From the sequence record LR746137: a DNA stretch of 64,000 bases; one strand, 5' to 3'. Position 1 is the stretch's first letter. Each line of letters opens with the position of its first letter. The position numbers and the translations under genes are program-made. Shown here in pieces: positions 4,642 through 19,652 of this stretch. Origin of the DNA: Escherichia phage vB_EcoM_UP17. The notes under the pieces are model-generated. The model had not been told where the DNA came from. It saw nothing but the letters and a program-made list of their open reading frames with translations, and did no database searches.

Positions 4642-5601
4642 TTAGATTCCAATAATAGTTGCTGCTCGTTTATCTTTGGATCTGGTGTTTGCTCTACTAC
4701 GTGACAAACCTCCACAAGATTCACAACGAATGATATCGAAAGAACTTACCGCAGTGTGGTATTGCTTACCAGTAACAACGTGAACATGATCACTGCCGCA
4801 ACGAGAACAACGGACTTTCTCATCTGGGTAATAAGCGGATAAGTTAGGATGCTGTGGAATCCACGGAAGGATTTTCATATACAAATCACGGAGTGAAACA
4901 ACATCGCCATCATTGTAAATCTGCATACGTTCAAAAGCATCACGATCACCTTCACAACATGCTTTCCATAAAGGGAACCCCTCGTTATCCAGTTTTTCAC
5001 TTTCTGTTTCGAAATATGCTCCCATTTCTTTAAGGGAGTTGGAAGGAAGTGCAAATTGTTTCTTAGCTGCCTTCAATGTATCAACAACTACATAATTAGA
5101 AGGAGGAGCCATATCGTGATATGCAAATCGTTGGTTAATGTATGCACGGTCAAACTTATACCCGTTGTGTGCCACAACTACATCTGCCTCATTCAGAAGG
5201 TTCCACAGATCTTGGCAAAGCTCCCAATCATCTGTATGATCAATATCAAAAAGAGGATAAGAAGACAAGTTCTTACCTTCCACTTCACCAGTATACAGGT
5301 CAGCAGAAGAGTAAGATAACAAATAACCCCTACGAATTACTTGATCTGGAGAAATGAAGGCTTTGAATCGACGGAAAGTATATGCAATCTCTGGTGCAGT
5401 TTCAACATCAATAATTTTAATAACGGGTTGTTTCTTTTTAACTGGCTCTTGTTTACTTGCTCCAAATCGTGCAAGGAAATCGTTCACTGTGCTTTTTCTT
5501 GTTGGACTACCTAAAACAATTGCTGCAATATTGCGAGAAGACATACCCTCTGCACTCATACTAAGGATATCTGCTTTCTGCTCTTCTGTTAATCTGCTCA
5601 C
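4642..5601 (-). CDS. DnaQ-like 3'-5' exonuclease with N-terminal HTH and C-terminal zinc ribbon
   Basis: IKIIDVETAPE (Exo I DxE) and VVAHNGYKFDRAY (Exo II HNxxFD); N-terminal SSRNIAAIVLGSPTRKSTVNDF HTH-like; C-terminal CSRCGSDH...CESCGG. Confidence 0.55.
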   Translation of the reverse strand: MSRLTEEQKADILSMSAEGMSSRNIAAIVLGSPTRKSTVNDFLARFGASKQEPVKKKQPVIKIIDVETAPEIAYTFRRFKAFISPDQVIRRGYLLSYSSADLYTGEVEGKNLSSYPLFDIDHTDDWELCQDLWNLLNEADVVVAHNGYKFDRAYINQRFAYHDMAPPSNYVVVDTLKAAKKQFALPSNSLKEMGAYFETESEKLDNEGFPLWKACCEGDRDAFERMQIYNDGDVVSLRDLYMKILPWIPQHPNLSAYYPDEKVRCSRCGSDHVHVVTGKQYHTAVSSFDIIRCESCGGLSRSRANTRSKDKRAATIIGI

Positions 5602-6287
5602 TCTGCCTCCTGTTGCGAGATGTATGACTGAAGCATACTCTCAAATGTTGTATCGTCATTATCCCAGCGTTTCATGTATACCAACTGGAAAATTGTTTCT
5701 ATCCATTCATCTGTTGTCATATGGACTTCTTCTCCATCCCAAGAAGTAAAATTAACACCATCTGGGAACCACGAGTAGTAAGTATCTTTAACTGTTTGGA
5801 AAAGCTCTGCTTGAGTTTTACAAGCTGAGAGAAGATTAAAACAAGTAATATCTCCAAACTTAATATCAAAATCTTGATAAGGTCGGATACTATCTGTTTT
5901 ATCTCCCATTAGCATCTGATAGGCTAACCAATAACTTCCCCAACCTTTAACTTCTTTCTTTTTACCTTTATCTACGATCCATATGTCGCCAATAGACTCG
6001 TCAATAAGAATTATATCTGGATTTTTAAATACTCCATCCTCTTTGTAGAAATTAAAAAGGATACTAGGAGTATGTAAACTATCTTTATCTATAGACACTA
6101 CAATATAAGAAAATTTACCCGTCCTTTTATAATCTTTATAACCTTGGAAACCATACTTCTCTAACTCATCGTCAGCCTCTATTACAGTAACAACATCGCC
6201 ATTGTGGAATTCCACAAGATAATCTTTGGTTTCTGAAAGCTGAAGTGGTTTGATATCTAATCGTTCAGACTTATATTCTACAGGCAT
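5598..6287 (-). CDS. hypothetical protein; ATG-initiated part of a longer open frame (see findings)
   Basis: 229-aa ORF from ATG 6287; same frame stays open with no ATG/GTG/TTG/CTG for 147 further codons up to the stop of the 6729-6938 ORF. Confidence 0.4.
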   Translation of the reverse strand: MPVEYKSERLDIKPLQLSETKDYLVEFHNGDVVTVIEADDELEKYGFQGYKDYKRTGKFSYIVVSIDKDSLHTPSILFNFYKEDGVFKNPDIILIDESIGDIWIVDKGKKKEVKGWGSYWLAYQMLMGDKTDSIRPYQDFDIKFGDITCFNLLSACKTQAELFQTVKDTYYSWFPDGVNFTSWDGEEVHMTTDEWIETIFQLVYMKRWDNDDTTFESMLQSYISQQEAE

Positions 6288-6728
6288 TTTGAAGGCGTGT
6301 CTGAAAGTTTTTCCTACGCCAATAACTCCGCAATATTTTTCTAAACGTAGATGTTTTAGAATACCTAAGACTTTTGTTTTAGCTGCTTGGAAGGTGTGTC
6401 CGATATCTTCTGGCGGGTATTGCTTATCAATGATTTCGAACTCTTCCTTTGTGAAGGGACGTTTGTTTTTGGAGGCTCTTTCTGCATTTGTATCTCCTAG
6501 CCAACCTCCAATCTTAGTCTTGCTTTTACCCCAAAACTCTGTCTTATTTTTAAATTCCTTTTGAGCACCTGAAGGGATGTGCTTTGCAATGATTGTTCTT
6601 TTCTCTAATGCAGACGCTGCTTGGAAAGCGATCTGATCATAATCAATTGCAGCTATTGTTTCTTCGTTGACATATAAATGAAGATCTTCAGGTTTAATTA
6701 AAATATAACCGCTAATATTTCCCCCTAA

Positions 6729-6938
6729 TTATTCATCGTCATCCTCTGTTGAGGATGTTTTAGTATACGGACATTGACGACTTTTCGGGATTGCTATAAC
6801 TTCATCTTGGTTAGCGTTAGAATAGTAGCAATATTTTGTATTGCCATTAACTTCAGAATCAGACAAGATTAAAGTAATTTGACCTGCTGCTACTGTGAAA
6901 CTAAAAGCTAAAAGAACGACTGTCAGAATCTTTTTCAT
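6729..6938 (-). CDS. small secreted protein or lipoprotein candidate (69 aa)
   Basis: N-terminal MKKILTVVLLAFSFTVAAGQ signal-peptide-like segment, acidic C-terminus EDDDE. Confidence 0.4.
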   Translation of the reverse strand: MKKILTVVLLAFSFTVAAGQITLILSDSEVNGNTKYCYYSNANQDEVIAIPKSRQCPYTKTSSTEDDDE

Positions 6939-7010: not shown

Positions 7011-7889
7011 TTATTTAAGGATTGTTGCTTTGGTTAAATCTTCCATCAGACCTCGAATCTCATTGAAGCACAGAAGGACTGAAGCTTCAATACTACCTTC
7101 TTCGTCTGCAAAATATTTCGGAAAACGTAGTTTAGAAAGTTTAAACTCTTTATCCACTACAAAATCTACAACACCGTCATATTCAAGACCGATTGCAACC
7201 ACATCTTTACCATCTTCTTTTAGTTCGACAGCTTTAGACTCGTATAGGGATTCTTTACTCCAAACAACAACGCCCTCGCTATCCTCCATTTTGATATAAT
7301 TTCCGAGAGTAATACGATCTGCTTCGTGATTCTCCAGCAATTCACCAAAACCTTTTACAATAGCTTCTTCGTGCACACTAAAACCTACCGAAGGGAAAGT
7401 CCCCAGAACGGAACGGAGGAAAGAAGTAATCTCTTCTGCAACCTTTTTACTTCCATTAAGAACATAAAGAAGATTCGTAGTTTTATCCAAGACAACATAG
7501 TTAAAGAAATCTTCAGGTTCTGTTTCAGGCAATAGTGCAAATTCAATATCTTCCTTCATTGCTTTGACTACTTCTTTATCGACATAAAACTCTTTACCTT
7601 CGCTCTCCATGTCCTGACGCATTTCTTCTAGACGTTCATTCAGAATACGTTTAACTTTCTTTTTATCTACTTTCTTCACAGATTGACCTACATTAAGCAG
7701 TTCAAGATCTGAAAACTCTTTTACAAATTTAGAGTTATCTTCGAAACGAACAAGACCGATAGTGTGTGACTGGGAGCCTTCTGCTGTTACAAATTCCAGA
7801 GGAATATCTGTAATGCTGTTAAGGGATGCTACAGAAGCATTGTCACCAACAACCATAGGTAGAGCGGATTTAAAAGATTTTACAAACAT
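7011..7889 (-). CDS. RdgC-like recombination-associated protein
   Basis: TTNLLYVLNGSKKVAEEITSFLRSVLGTFPSVGFS resembles the RdgC core (VNGLIMVD...KAEDTLALLRKSLGSLPV) recalled from memory; size 292 aa fits. Confidence 0.5.
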   Translation of the reverse strand: MFVKSFKSALPMVVGDNASVASLNSITDIPLEFVTAEGSQSHTIGLVRFEDNSKFVKEFSDLELLNVGQSVKKVDKKKVKRILNERLEEMRQDMESEGKEFYVDKEVVKAMKEDIEFALLPETEPEDFFNYVVLDKTTNLLYVLNGSKKVAEEITSFLRSVLGTFPSVGFSVHEEAIVKGFGELLENHEADRITLGNYIKMEDSEGVVVWSKESLYESKAVELKEDGKDVVAIGLEYDGVVDFVVDKEFKLSKLRFPKYFADEEGSIEASVLLCFNEIRGLMEDLTKATILK

Positions 7890-17619: not shown

Positions 17620-17691
17620 GGCCCTGTAGCTCAATGGGAGAGCTGTCGGCTCATAACCGATAGGTAGCTGGATCGAAACCAGCCAGGGCCA
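17620..17691 (+). tRNA. tRNA-Met (anticodon CAT)
   Basis: Hand-folded cloverleaf: acceptor GGCCCTG/CAGGGCC, anticodon loop CTCATAA, T-arm GCTGG-ATCGAAA-CCAGC, encoded CCA. Confidence 0.7.
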
Positions 17692-17696
17692 CCAAC

Positions 17697-17768
17697 GTCT
17701 TTATGGTGTAATGGATAGCACAGGAGTCTTCTAAACTCTTAGTCAAGGTTCGATTCCTTGTAAAGACA
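17697..17768 (+). tRNA. tRNA-Arg (anticodon TCT)
   Basis: Acceptor GTCTTTA/TAAAGAC, anticodon stem GGAGT/ACTCT with loop CTTCTAA, T-arm CAAGG-TTCGATT-CCTTG, CCA encoded. Confidence 0.7.
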
Positions 17769-17967
17769 CCAGAACATTTTAACATGAATTAGCTCAAGTG
17801 ATTTGAACCCACTACTGATCATAGTGGCAGAGAATGAGGCAAGTATGTCAGACATTGTAAACAAAGGCCACGGTTACATTAGAAGATATAAATGCTCGAA
17901 GAGCACCGTTCGCTGAGAACGGGGGTTGGTGGAGTCACCATTCATGGTAAAATGTTTTAAAAAACTA

Positions 17968-17996
17968 TTGACAACTAACATTATTTTATGTTAGAT
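17968..17996 (+). promoter_or_regulatory. sigma70-like promoter (TTGACA, TATGTTAGAT)
   Basis: AAAACTATTGACAAC followed 13 nt later by TATGTTAGATTATAAG, 10 nt before tRNA-Ser. Confidence 0.45.
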
Positions 17997-18005
17997 TATA
18001 AGTAT

Positions 18006-18093
18006 GGAAGGGCAAATCGACGTGGTGACGAAAACGGTCTTGAAAACCGCCGAGCTTGAAAGAGCCTTGGGAGTTCGACTCTCCCTCCTTCCG
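18006..18093 (+). tRNA. tRNA-Ser (anticodon TGA), class II
   Basis: Acceptor GGAAGGG/TCCTTCC, anticodon loop CTTGAAA, long variable arm, T-arm GGGAG-TTCGACT-CTCCC, CCA encoded. Confidence 0.7.
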
Positions 18094-18101
18094 CCAGATT
18101 A

Positions 18102-18184
18102 GGTAGATTGGTGAAATGGTAGCCACGACAGTTTGCTAAACTGTAGTCGGAAACGGCGTGTAGGTTCGAGTCCTACATCTACCG
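18102..18184 (+). tRNA. tRNA-Ser (anticodon GCT), class II
   Basis: Acceptor GGTAGAT/ATCTACC, anticodon stem ACAGT/ACTGT with loop TTGCTAA, long variable arm, T-arm GTAGG-TTCGAGT-CCTAC. Confidence 0.7.
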
Positions 18185-18314
18185 CCAAGTTGTTTTTAAT
18201 GTAGCGTTGCGGCTACTTACTTTAGCAGAGTAAATCTTCGGCAAGTGGCGGTAACCACTTTACCGATACCGCATAGTCAGTAAGGCGAATACTGGCTACT
18301 TTAAAAACAATTTT

Positions 18315-18395
18315 GTGAGATTGGCAGAGTGGTCGATTGCGGGGGACTGTAAATCCCTTCTGAAAGGCGCGGTGGTTCGAATCCATCATCTCACA
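18315..18395 (+). tRNA. tRNA-Tyr (anticodon GTA), class II
   Basis: Acceptor GTGAGAT/ATCTCAC, anticodon stem GGGGA/TCCCT with loop CTGTAAA, long variable arm, T-arm GGTGG-TTCGAAT-CCATC. Confidence 0.7.
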
Positions 18396-18404
18396 CCAAA
18401 TTAA

Positions 18405-18487
18405 GATGAGTTGGCTGAATGGTTTAAGCGGCGGACTGTTAATCCGTGTTCGAAAGAACGATATAGGTTCAAATCCTATACTCATCG
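18405..18487 (+). tRNA. atypical class II tRNA, anticodon loop CTGTTAA (reads as GTT, Asn) with 15-nt variable arm
   Basis: Acceptor GATGAGT/ACTCATC, anticodon stem GCGGA/TCCGT, variable region GTTCGAAAGAACGAT, T-arm ATAGG-TTCAAAT-CCTAT; isotype assignment uncertain. Confidence 0.5.
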
Positions 18488-18497
18488 CCAGAATTAT

Positions 18498-18575
18498 GGA
18501 CTTGTAGAGTTAAGGTAAAACCTCCAGTCGCCAAGAGGCTTCTGGAATTGCAGGTATCGAATCCTGCCGAGTCCC
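18498..18575 (+). pseudogene. degenerate tRNA-like element
   Basis: Good 7-bp acceptor GGACTTG/CGAGTCC and T-arm GCAGG...CCTGC, but T-loop is 8 nt (TATCGAAT) and no canonical anticodon arm or CCA could be folded. Confidence 0.3.
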
Positions 18576-18581
18576 AGATTT

Positions 18582-18653
18582 GCTCCTATAGTATAATGGC
18601 TATTACAACGGTTTTGTAATCCGTGGATCTCTGTTCGATTCAGAGTGGGAGCA
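18582..18653 (+). tRNA. tRNA-Thr (anticodon TGT)
   Basis: Acceptor GCTCCTA/TGGGAGC, anticodon loop TTTGTAA, T-arm CTCTG-TTCGATT-CAGAG, CCA encoded. Confidence 0.7.
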
Positions 18654-18929
18654 CCAACACAACATTAAGAGCACTGTGATTGATCGTCGTATCCTGTGCA
18701 CAAGGTCTGTTCGAAAGACAGTGTTCTTAGTATTGTGTTGATCACACAAAGAGTCACCTGAAACTTGACCGGAGTAGGGTTGGATGGGGCAAAAGAAGAA
18801 GCGGCTCTCCCATCGACAGCAACGAAGAATAATATTTGACTTTAGTTTTGTATTATTTTAAGTTAGCTTACCGAACGTAGGGCTAGTCACCCAACGGGAT
18901 ACTCGTCACTGTCCCACTCAATAAAACTA

Positions 18930-18959
18930 TTGACAACCAATAGTAAAATGTAGTATAGT
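18930..18959 (+). promoter_or_regulatory. sigma70-like promoter with extended -10 (TTGACA, TGTAGTATAGT)
   Basis: AAAACTATTGACAACC followed 13 nt later by TGTAGTATAGT, 11 nt before tRNA-Gly. Confidence 0.45.
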
Positions 18960-18970
18960 AAAGATGTAGG

Positions 18971-19041
18971 GCGTTCTTGGTGTAGCGGTAGCATTCCGTC
19001 CTTCCAAGTCGGCGGCACGAGTTCGATCCTCGTAGGACGCT
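18971..19041 (+). tRNA. tRNA-Gly (anticodon TCC)
   Basis: Acceptor GCGTTCT/AGGACGC, anticodon loop CTTCCAA, T-arm ACGAG-TTCGATC-CTCGT, CCA encoded. Confidence 0.65.
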
Positions 19042-19142
19042 CCAAATTATTTAATAAAGGGTTGCCAGAAAACTTTCTCTTTTACTCATGGTTTTCTCCT
19101 TCTCTCACACCTCTTCTGGTTGCCCTTCATTAAATGATTTAT

Positions 19143-19215
19143 TGGTTTGTAGTGTAGTCAGGTAGCACACGACACTTTGACTGTCGTAGGTTTGGTTCAA
19201 ATCCAGACAGACCAG
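19143..19215 (+). tRNA. tRNA-Gln (anticodon TTG)
   Basis: U1-A72 acceptor TGGTTTG/CAGACCA (as in enterobacterial tRNA-Gln), anticodon stem CGACA/TGTCG with loop CTTTGAC, T-arm TTTGG-TTCAAAT-CCAGA, CCA encoded. Confidence 0.65.
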
Positions 19216-19223
19216 CCATATAA

Positions 19224-19297
19224 CGGAATTTAGCTCAGTTTGGTAGAGCATACGCTTTGGGAGCGTAGGGTCGCAGGTTCGAATCCTGCAATTCCGA
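19224..19297 (+). tRNA. tRNA-Pro (anticodon TGG)
   Basis: Acceptor CGGAATT/AATTCCG, anticodon stem TACGC/GCGTA with loop TTTGGGA, T-arm GCAGG-TTCGAAT-CCTGC, CCA encoded. Confidence 0.7.
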
Positions 19298-19306
19298 CCA
19301 ATTTAA

Positions 19307-19377
19307 TGTTTCGTAGTTCAATGGTAGAACCCACGACTGATAATCGTGAGACACAAGTTCGATTCTTGTCGAAACAA
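19307..19377 (+). tRNA. tRNA-Ile (anticodon GAT)
   Basis: Acceptor TGTTTCG/CGAAACA, D-stem GTTC/GAAC, anticodon stem CACGA/TCGTG with loop CTGATAA, T-arm ACAAG-TTCGATT-CTTGT, CCA encoded. Confidence 0.65.
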
Positions 19378-19382
19378 CCAGT

Positions 19383-19452
19383 TTCCCGTTAGACTTACAG
19401 GATAAGAGTTCCACAGCTTATTGTGATGCTGGTTCGAATCCAGCACGGGATA
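19383..19452 (+). pseudogene. degenerate tRNA-like element
   Basis: Canonical T-arm GCTGG-TTCGAAT-CCAGC and 6-bp acceptor, but the anticodon region folds as CACAG-CTTA-TTGTG (4-nt loop) and no CCA is encoded. Confidence 0.3.
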
Positions 19453-19458
19453 CATAAT

Positions 19459-19534
19459 AGCGGGATAGAGGAGTCTGGTCGTCCTCGCCAGTTTCATATG
19501 CTGGAGATCATTGGTTCAAATCCAATTCCCGCCT
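19459..19534 (+). tRNA. tRNA with anticodon CAT (Met or lysidine-type Ile2)
   Basis: Acceptor AGCGGGA/TCCCGCC with mismatched 1:72, D-stem GAGG/CCTC, anticodon stem CCAGT/GCTGG with loop TTCATAT, T-arm ATTGG-TTCAAAT-CCAAT, CCA encoded. Confidence 0.6.
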
Positions 19535-19652
19535 CCAAATATCGCTTGCCAGCGGTATCTTTGAAGAACTTGCCTGGTTCCTTCTAAGATGGAGGGGTGC
19601 GACTCCTTAACGCACAATCATAATAAAGCATTTCAAATTAACAGTATTTATT

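Follow-up and report, generated by a model that had tools for sequence, protein, structure and literature searches.

Escherichia phage vB_EcoM_UP17 (sequence record LR746137) carries a predicted exonuclease gene that has no canonical start codon and appears to begin at ATT. The window analyzed here is a stretch of 64,000 nucleotides from this genome, and all positions are counted from its first letter. The region shares 95-99% identity with 64 phAPEC8/ESCO13-like coliphage genomes (Phapecoctavirus, Stephanstirmvirinae). The following features define the gene and its start:

5598..6716, minus strand: coding sequence of a 372-amino-acid, T7-gp6-like predicted 5'-3' exonuclease of the FEN superfamily, from ATT (6716-6714) to TGA (5600-5598).
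6714..6716, minus strand: proposed start codon ATT (AUU), near-cognate and weak; the first near-cognate codon after the in-frame TAA, 4 nucleotides past AGGGGG.
6721..6726, minus strand: putative Shine-Dalgarno (SD) sequence AGGGGG, separated from the ATT by the spacer AAAT (6720-6717), as read directly from the DNA; relatives mostly have AGGAGG.
6288..6713, minus strand: codons 2-143, the "extension", assigned to the N-terminal part of the nuclease domain from its own PHROG 107 match, its substitution pattern and a structural model.
6636..6644, minus strand: codons for D25-Y26-D27, in the near-invariant acidic motif IDYDQIAFQAASALE on the first strand of the nuclease fold (65-homologue alignment).
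6285..6287, minus strand: ATG of the internal Met144, taken by most annotations as the start of a 229-amino-acid protein, with no SD before it.

The frame is long and open, and its first canonical start lies far inside it. Read in triplets on the minus strand, it runs from the TAA at 6731-6729 through 147 sense codons (6728..6288) to the ATG at 6287-6285, and stays open to the TGA at 5600-5598. This bears out the original prediction, made from the letters of the window, of 441 nucleotides of start-less open frame upstream of the ATG. None of the 147 codons is ATG, GTG, TTG, CTG or a stop. The near-cognate codons among them are ATT (nine, the first at 6716-6714), ATC (five) and ATA (one). Canonical starts and CTG together account for 5.6% of the interior codons of long open reading frames (ORFs) in the window. 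The chance that a given 147-codon stretch lacks all four codons is about 2e-4 (1e-3 if CTG is not counted), and about 0.2 such runs are expected in the approximately 16,000 codons of these ORFs. The run is the longest in the window, followed by one of 108 codons. A scan of the window for other long start-less leaders found none that looks coding; the other five frames resemble antisense shadows. The absence of internal GTG, TTG and CTG is not conserved in relatives (phi92 has CTG and GTG, and phiWec179 has TTG and GTG), and is thus probably due to chance. Across relatives, the conserved feature is instead the lack of a canonical codon at the apparent real start site.

Extension and 229-amino-acid ORF are, on comparative evidence, one 372-amino-acid exonuclease and not a leader plus an ORF. 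Each part matches phrog_107 ("exonuclease") when searched alone, the extension with an expect value (E) of 5e-7, and their profile coordinates are continuous; the full protein matches PHROG 107 with E 1e-55. A tblastn search with the 372-amino-acid reading retrieved 1232 phage records. In 900 of these, the match covers at least 80% of the protein and extends to residues 1-16. The extension, which had been described earlier as containing conserved-looking text, is conserved as protein. We also compared the extension with 12 relatives and found proportions of nonsynonymous differences (pN) of 0.16-0.34 against proportions of synonymous differences (pS) of 0.67-0.90, with the remainder of the gene behaving alike. 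Raw pN and pS are given in place of the rate ratio dN/dS because synonymous sites are saturated. By this measure, the extension is under strong purifying selection. AlphaFold2 models all 372 residues as a single compact domain, with a predicted local distance difference test (pLDDT) score of 96.2, in which the extension supplies strands and helices at pLDDT 86-98.

These results bear on two other accounts of the locus. The functional product could be the 229-amino-acid protein started at ATG 6287, with the upstream 441 nucleotides an untranslated remnant. ATG 6287 is the first canonical start in the frame, and a 229-amino-acid product is annotated in phAPEC8_ev052, ECML-183-2 and Klebsiella phi1_175008 (L006 1024-1713; L002 and L003 1699-2388). 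However, the sequence before it, CACGCCTTCAAA ATG, contains no SD, and Met144 is replaced by Leu in relatives below ~68% identity. The 143 codons upstream are under purifying selection, match the exonuclease PHROG and hold D25 and D27, which are common to T7 gp6. A fragment starting at Met144 would, according to the alignment and the model, lose these two residues of the active site together with the first third of the fold, since the first FEN strands and helices lie upstream. Homologues that begin at the ATG behind unrelated sequence were not seen among the relatives, whose upstream sequence is homologous throughout. We consider this account very unlikely.

Alternatively, the gene might be decaying after loss of its start, or the ATT might be a sequencing or assembly error for ATG. 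Both had been raised in the original prediction, and the missing canonical start and the failure of gene callers would fit either. Decay is contradicted by a frame that is intact (365-384 codons) in 33 diverged lineages, by low pN at saturated synonymous sites, with pN much smaller than pS in either half of the gene, and by an SD at fixed spacing. An error is contradicted by recurrence of the same sequence across many independent genomes: ESCO13 and the independent contigs L010 and L023 share the start region, and over the 81 nucleotides around the start the window matches 64 phage records with 97.5-98.8% identity. The probability left for decay or error is close to nil.

The gene product is predicted, from sequence and from the model, to be a T7-gp6-like 5'-3' exonuclease of the FEN family. 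In an alignment of 65 homologues, D25 and D27 show at least 90% conservation, while E180, D182, D183, D210, D212, D272 and D275 are invariant. The conserved metal-binding carboxylate clusters expected of the FEN superfamily are represented, including one on the N-terminal strand. The T5 FEN residues D26, E128/D130, D153/D155 and D201/D204 are presumably the counterparts of these acidic residues. A fold search with the modelled 372-amino-acid protein recovered the PIN-like FEN fold. The Pfam family PF02739 (5_3_exonuc_N) was detected in 16 of the 65 homologues (best E 1.7e-6). The window protein itself gave nothing against Pfam at E <= 0.1, and its sole sub-threshold match was irrelevant. Neither the protein nor the family profile retrieved a useful match among PDB sequences.

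T7 gp6 is among the closest known systems. A profile-profile alignment of the family with T7 gp6 (hhalign) gave a probability of 89% and E 2.4e-6 over the catalytic core. The T7 protein has VMDGDWLVFQAMSAAE, in which the two aspartates are again D25 and D27 if the window protein is numbered from the ATT; the N-terminal motifs that contain them are IDYDQIAFQAASALE in the window and MDGDWLVFQAMSAAE in T7 gp6. Further paired motifs (window/T7) are EYKSER/NYKANR, IEADD/LEGDD, SIDKD/SCDKD and GDKTD/GDITD, and T7-like phage exonucleases are among the tblastn matches (H75, H83). The two proteins differ in that identity is only ~24% over the aligned core, that T7 gp6 has 300 amino acids against 372, with insertions, in the window protein, and that T7 gene 6 starts with ATG. 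Further related systems are the FEN/PIN-like 5' nucleases of PF02739, namely the T5 D15 flap endonuclease, ExoIX of E. coli, RNase H of T4 and the 5' nuclease domain of Pol I. In comparison with them, the window protein falls below the Pfam threshold, has no PDB sequence match, carries extra inserted elements and reaches a TM-score of ~0.4 on query length.

Translation most likely starts at ATT 6716-6714, judging from the surrounding sequence and its relatives. GGGGGA (6725-6720), then AAT and then ATT lie exactly where they had been reported. This is the arrangement of the commonest class of start among the window's genes, which combines an SD of at least 5 nucleotides with a spacer of 4-6 nucleotides. 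In four relatives (L015, L026, L027, L029), the codon immediately before the aligned ATC is an in-frame TAA, and thus nothing upstream can start the protein. The remaining relatives have an in-frame stop 3-8 codons upstream, with no start in between. The residues after the start codon (S-G-Y-I-L-I or G-Y-I-L-I) are conserved through synonymous changes, which indicates that these codons are translated. Together, the adjacent in-frame stops, the conserved residues that follow and the SD pin the start to the near-cognate codon.

The stops also speak against a fusion of the exonuclease with the upstream ORF, a 69-amino-acid frame, by readthrough or frameshifting. Such a fusion might be suspected since the TAA at 6731-6729 is in frame with the exonuclease, and a 444-amino-acid "fusion" protein (P0005) exists in the protein collection. 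The frame relation had been pointed out before and is true of the window, but it is incidental: in phi92, phiWec179, L031, L120 and L122 the upstream ORF is in another frame. The four relatives with the adjacent TAA have two in-frame stops, and the signal peptide on the upstream ORF would make no sense for a DNA nuclease. The frame relation between the two ORFs varies among relatives and does not fit a programmed fusion. We give a fusion virtually no credence. P0005 (L117 1501-2835), the sole such fusion protein in the databases, is an artefact; its junction DNA reads GAA TAG GAG GGT AAT ATC, and the gene caller took the TAG as sense.

The near-cognate start is shared by a whole clade. We collected start contexts from the annotated phages phi92, phiWec179, Klebsiella phi1_175008, Ro1, AlexBoehm and PAK_P5, and further contexts from IMG/VR, metagenome contigs and those Logan/ENA contigs in which database homologues are encoded. 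All 33 distinct relatives at 49% identity or more fall into a single monophyletic group. The codon 4-5 nucleotides past the SD is ATT in 13 of them, ATC in 13, ATA in five and CTG in two; ATG, GTG and TTG do not occur. The SD is AGGAGG in 26 members, AGGGGG in six and GGAGG in one. A perfect AGGAGG is thus found in 26/33 clade members, compared with 10/61 crude gene starts in the window. Fitch parsimony on a neighbor-joining tree requires at least nine switches among ATT, ATC, ATA and CTG, and none to a canonical codon. The N-terminal extension from ATT 6716-6714, proposed at the outset from the letters alone, is therefore supported by a near-cognate codon in all 33 relatives as well as by protein conservation and the T7 gp6 motif.

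This pattern points to selection on the efficiency of initiation. The initiator tRNA gives formylmethionine (fMet) at the start whatever the spelling of the codon, and thus avoidance of ATG cannot be explained by selection on the protein. ATG is a single mutation away from each of ATT, ATC, ATA and CTG, and the synonymous sites of the clade are saturated. The complete absence of ATG, combined with a near-perfect SD, suggests that initiation efficiency itself is selected, and the gene seems to be kept at low translation by a weak start. In reporter assays in E. coli, AUA, AUC, AUU and CUG rank together as the second tier of start codons, initiating at 1-2% of the AUG level (bioRxiv 10.1101/063800), and in another reporter AUU lies 6-8-fold below AUG (PMC3592434).

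Outside the clade, canonical codons (ATG, GTG or TTG) occupy the aligned site in a Vequintavirinae-like sister clade of ~40% identity. Within this sister clade (L008, L053-L058), TTG or GTG starts are strikingly common and account for about half of the distinct sequences. Ro1 (L007/L051) has an ATG 1 nucleotide past AGGAGG, immediately followed by TTG at the normal 4-nucleotide spacing. The tendency of this exonuclease gene toward weak starts may be older than the near-cognate clade.

Phage-encoded tRNAs offer another explanation of the codon series. The window contains a cluster of 11 tRNA genes at 17620-19537 (plus strand), in the order Met, Arg, Ser, Tyr, Asn, Thr, Gly, Gln, Pro, Ile and Met. 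The second tRNA(CAT), at 19459-19537, has an A1.C72 mismatch at ARAGORN's boundaries and no GGG/CCC anticodon stem; it could be a Met, Ile2 or other tRNA. If one of the encoded tRNAs served as a dedicated initiator for AUU, AUC and AUA, the start codon would be efficient during infection. The presence of tRNA-Ile(GAT) and of two tRNA(CAT), one with the mismatch just described, would favor this. The mark of a bacterial initiator tRNA is three consecutive G-C pairs in the anticodon stem. Neither tRNA-Ile(GAT) nor either tRNA(CAT) has this signature, tRNA-Ile(GAT) is paired at 1:72, and the CTG starts in the clade would not be read by an Ile-type anticodon. A dedicated initiator is highly improbable.

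Three genes neighbor the exonuclease gene:

7011-7889, minus strand (7889-7011): RdgC-like gene, first in the local gene order.
6729..6938, minus strand: 69-amino-acid ORF encoding a small protein with a signal-peptide-like N-terminus (PHROG 4641, E 1e-25).
4642..5601, minus strand: DnaQ/RNase-H-fold "DNA polymerase exonuclease subunit" with a GTG start (PHROG 403, E 7e-107; Pfam RNase_H_2, E 1e-9).

The upstream ORF ends beside the exonuclease start. Its TAA (6731-6729) lies 12 nucleotides before the ATT and adjoins the SD, and its phi92 homologue is annotated with a SignalP signal peptide. In relatives, the upstream stop overlaps or abuts the SD, as TAGGAGG in most, while its frame relative to the exonuclease varies. 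Initiation at the near-cognate codon might come for the most part from ribosomes fresh from termination on the 69-amino-acid ORF rather than from free 30S subunits. Translation of the upstream ORF would then determine output, with the weak codon enforcing this dependence, which would refine a selected weak start and not contradict it. Beyond the position of the stop, reporter data fit such coupling: stops a few nucleotides upstream of a start, including the infC arrangement UAA-GGU-AUU, give about half of second-cistron translation (PMC3592434). On the other hand, L126-L128 have a different upstream gene (a methyltransferase or HNH gene) and yet keep the SD and near-cognate layout. Coupling therefore cannot be essential. 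A strong SD at optimal spacing argues that ribosomes are recruited de novo as well. We regard predominant use by terminating ribosomes as possible but on balance not likely. Overproduced IF3 lowers the efficiency of re-initiation in a coupled reporter, an effect interpreted there as 30S re-initiation (PMC2268962). There is thus no clear reason to expect coupling to shield a near-cognate codon from IF3.

Predicted RNA folds of the start region contain no significant structure by which the SD and AUU would be sequestered or exposed (minimum free energy z = -0.45). A 7-bp hairpin at 6740-6757 (CAUCCUC AACA GAGGAUG, minus-strand RNA) lies in the last codons of the 69-amino-acid ORF, ~10 nucleotides upstream of the exonuclease SD. 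It is the sole element in the centroid fold, and competition of its CCUC arm for the SD is conceivable.

Taken together, 6716..5598 is very probably one intact exonuclease gene that is initiated at AUU and whose weak start codon is maintained by selection. In the mechanism that we propose, the strong SD (AGGGGG here, AGGAGG in most relatives), 4 nucleotides upstream, would position the ribosome on the AUU. The initiator tRNA would mispair with this near-cognate codon, so that the first residue would be fMet and not Ile. Initiation would proceed at a few percent of the level of AUG. Across the Stephanstirmvirinae-like clade, the codon has switched between AUU, AUC, AUA and CUG without ever reaching AUG, GUG or UUG, and the SD has remained strong. 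The most likely purpose would be a low dose of a DNA-degrading, flap-cutting nuclease relative to its neighbors in a replication/recombination module (RdgC-like, small secreted protein, exonuclease, DnaQ-like exonuclease subunit). Termination of the 69-amino-acid ORF beside the SD may add coupled re-initiation. The comparisons and the model show that the gene is intact, to what it is homologous and how it folds, that its extension is under selection and that the start-codon pattern spans the clade; from these we infer AUU initiation, fMet at position 1, the low yield and the reason for it.

Several points weigh against this interpretation. Drift among ATT, ATC and ATA would likewise be expected of an internal Ile codon. 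Because the codon pattern alone would fit such an internal codon, it is the adjacent in-frame stops and the SD geometry that support the assignment of the start. The clade members are related, and 33 sequences amount to fewer than 33 independent observations; the count of nine switches derives from a quick neighbor-joining tree. The SD of the window, AGGGGG, is one G.U short of the perfect AGGAGG. Finally, a lytic phage has no evident need to keep its exonuclease so scarce, and the limitation of its dose is likewise something that we infer.

The near-cognate start could also act as a regulatory device. Exonuclease translation would then follow the stringency of initiation in the infected cell, set by the ratio of IF3 to ribosomes, and upstream termination, and the dose of the nuclease would be gated by the stage of infection or the state of the host. 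We think this rather improbable. If true, AUC, AUA and CUG starts in E. coli phages would be available for the first time as a natural series, maintained across nine or more switches, and the clade would be a ready-made in vivo system for the study of start-codon fidelity.

Two E. coli genes are the natural comparison. infC (encoding IF3) and pcnB (encoding poly(A) polymerase), both AUU, are the only confirmed non-canonical starts in E. coli (bioRxiv 10.1101/063800). As proposed for the exonuclease gene, each has an AUU start that lies behind an SD and limits translation. The phage gene shares the features expected of this type: no canonical start upstream of the conserved, translated sequence, an SD at functional spacing and conservation of the non-canonical start. 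For pcnB, the inefficient codon has been described as limiting expression; in infC, a stop lies 3 nucleotides upstream, a coupled layout. Unlike infC, whose AUU senses its own product IF3, the phage nuclease gene shows no apparent autoregulatory loop. Unlike both genes, its orthologues also use AUC, AUA and CUG, which are rarely documented for natural genes.

These comparisons indicate what the locus may offer. An entire phage subfamily appears to have retained AUU, AUC, AUA or CUG, each behind a near-perfect SD, as the start of a replication/recombination nuclease that looks essential. This would constitute evolutionary evidence that the second-tier start codons measured in reporters are used and selected in nature. 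It would also provide a simple system in which to study the need for a low dose of a FEN-type nuclease.

The same ATT is already annotated in one relative. ESCO13 gp105 (YP_009786567.1; NC_047770.1 / KX552041.2) is the same gene at ~99% nucleotide identity, and its ATT start is annotated together with a hand-placed ribosome-binding site (RBS) feature, an independent annotation that favors the start proposed here. The start region matched 126 Stephanstirmvirinae records. Among the matches listed, the ESCO13 record KX552041.2 is the sole one with an exonuclease feature over the start region. The ESCO13 genome announcement is silent on the start codon (PMC5374246). We found no description of an ATT start in the literature on phAPEC8/ESCO13 start codons and on unusual starts of phage exonucleases, and these searches brought up neither proteomics nor ribosome profiling of this phage group. 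Thus, the ATT start itself has been annotated before, while its clade-wide maintenance as a near-cognate codon seems not to have been pointed out.

Elsewhere, the missing canonical start seems to push gene callers into odd solutions. Five of the six Stephanstirmvirinae records examined call a shorter exonuclease, ESCO13 alone using the ATT. Besides the three 229-amino-acid calls given above, phi92 gp085 (L004 685-1719) has a GTG start placed inside the DYDQ-V-AF catalytic motif, with the annotation "No RBS identified; weak Prodigal statistics", and phiWec179 (L005 613-1704) has an internal TTG start 12 codons in. Metagenome gene callers choose internal starts or even switch the genetic code. 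Such mis-annotation matters in that a truncated product would lose part of the nuclease active site; the correct product would have 372 amino acids.

Downstream, the TGA of the exonuclease gene and the GTG of the DnaQ-like gene overlap as GTGA (5598-5601). The DnaQ-like gene, itself GTG-started, may be translationally coupled to the weakly initiated exonuclease gene. Upstream of the 69-amino-acid ORF, the minus strand at 7006-6954 contains a promoter-like TTGACT-17 nucleotides-TATTAT with a TG extension. This element is followed by an 8-bp GC-rich hairpin with a U-run, and then by the SD and ATG of the 69-amino-acid ORF. The hairpin could be the terminator of the RdgC-like gene, a stabilizing hairpin at the 5' end of the new transcript, or both.

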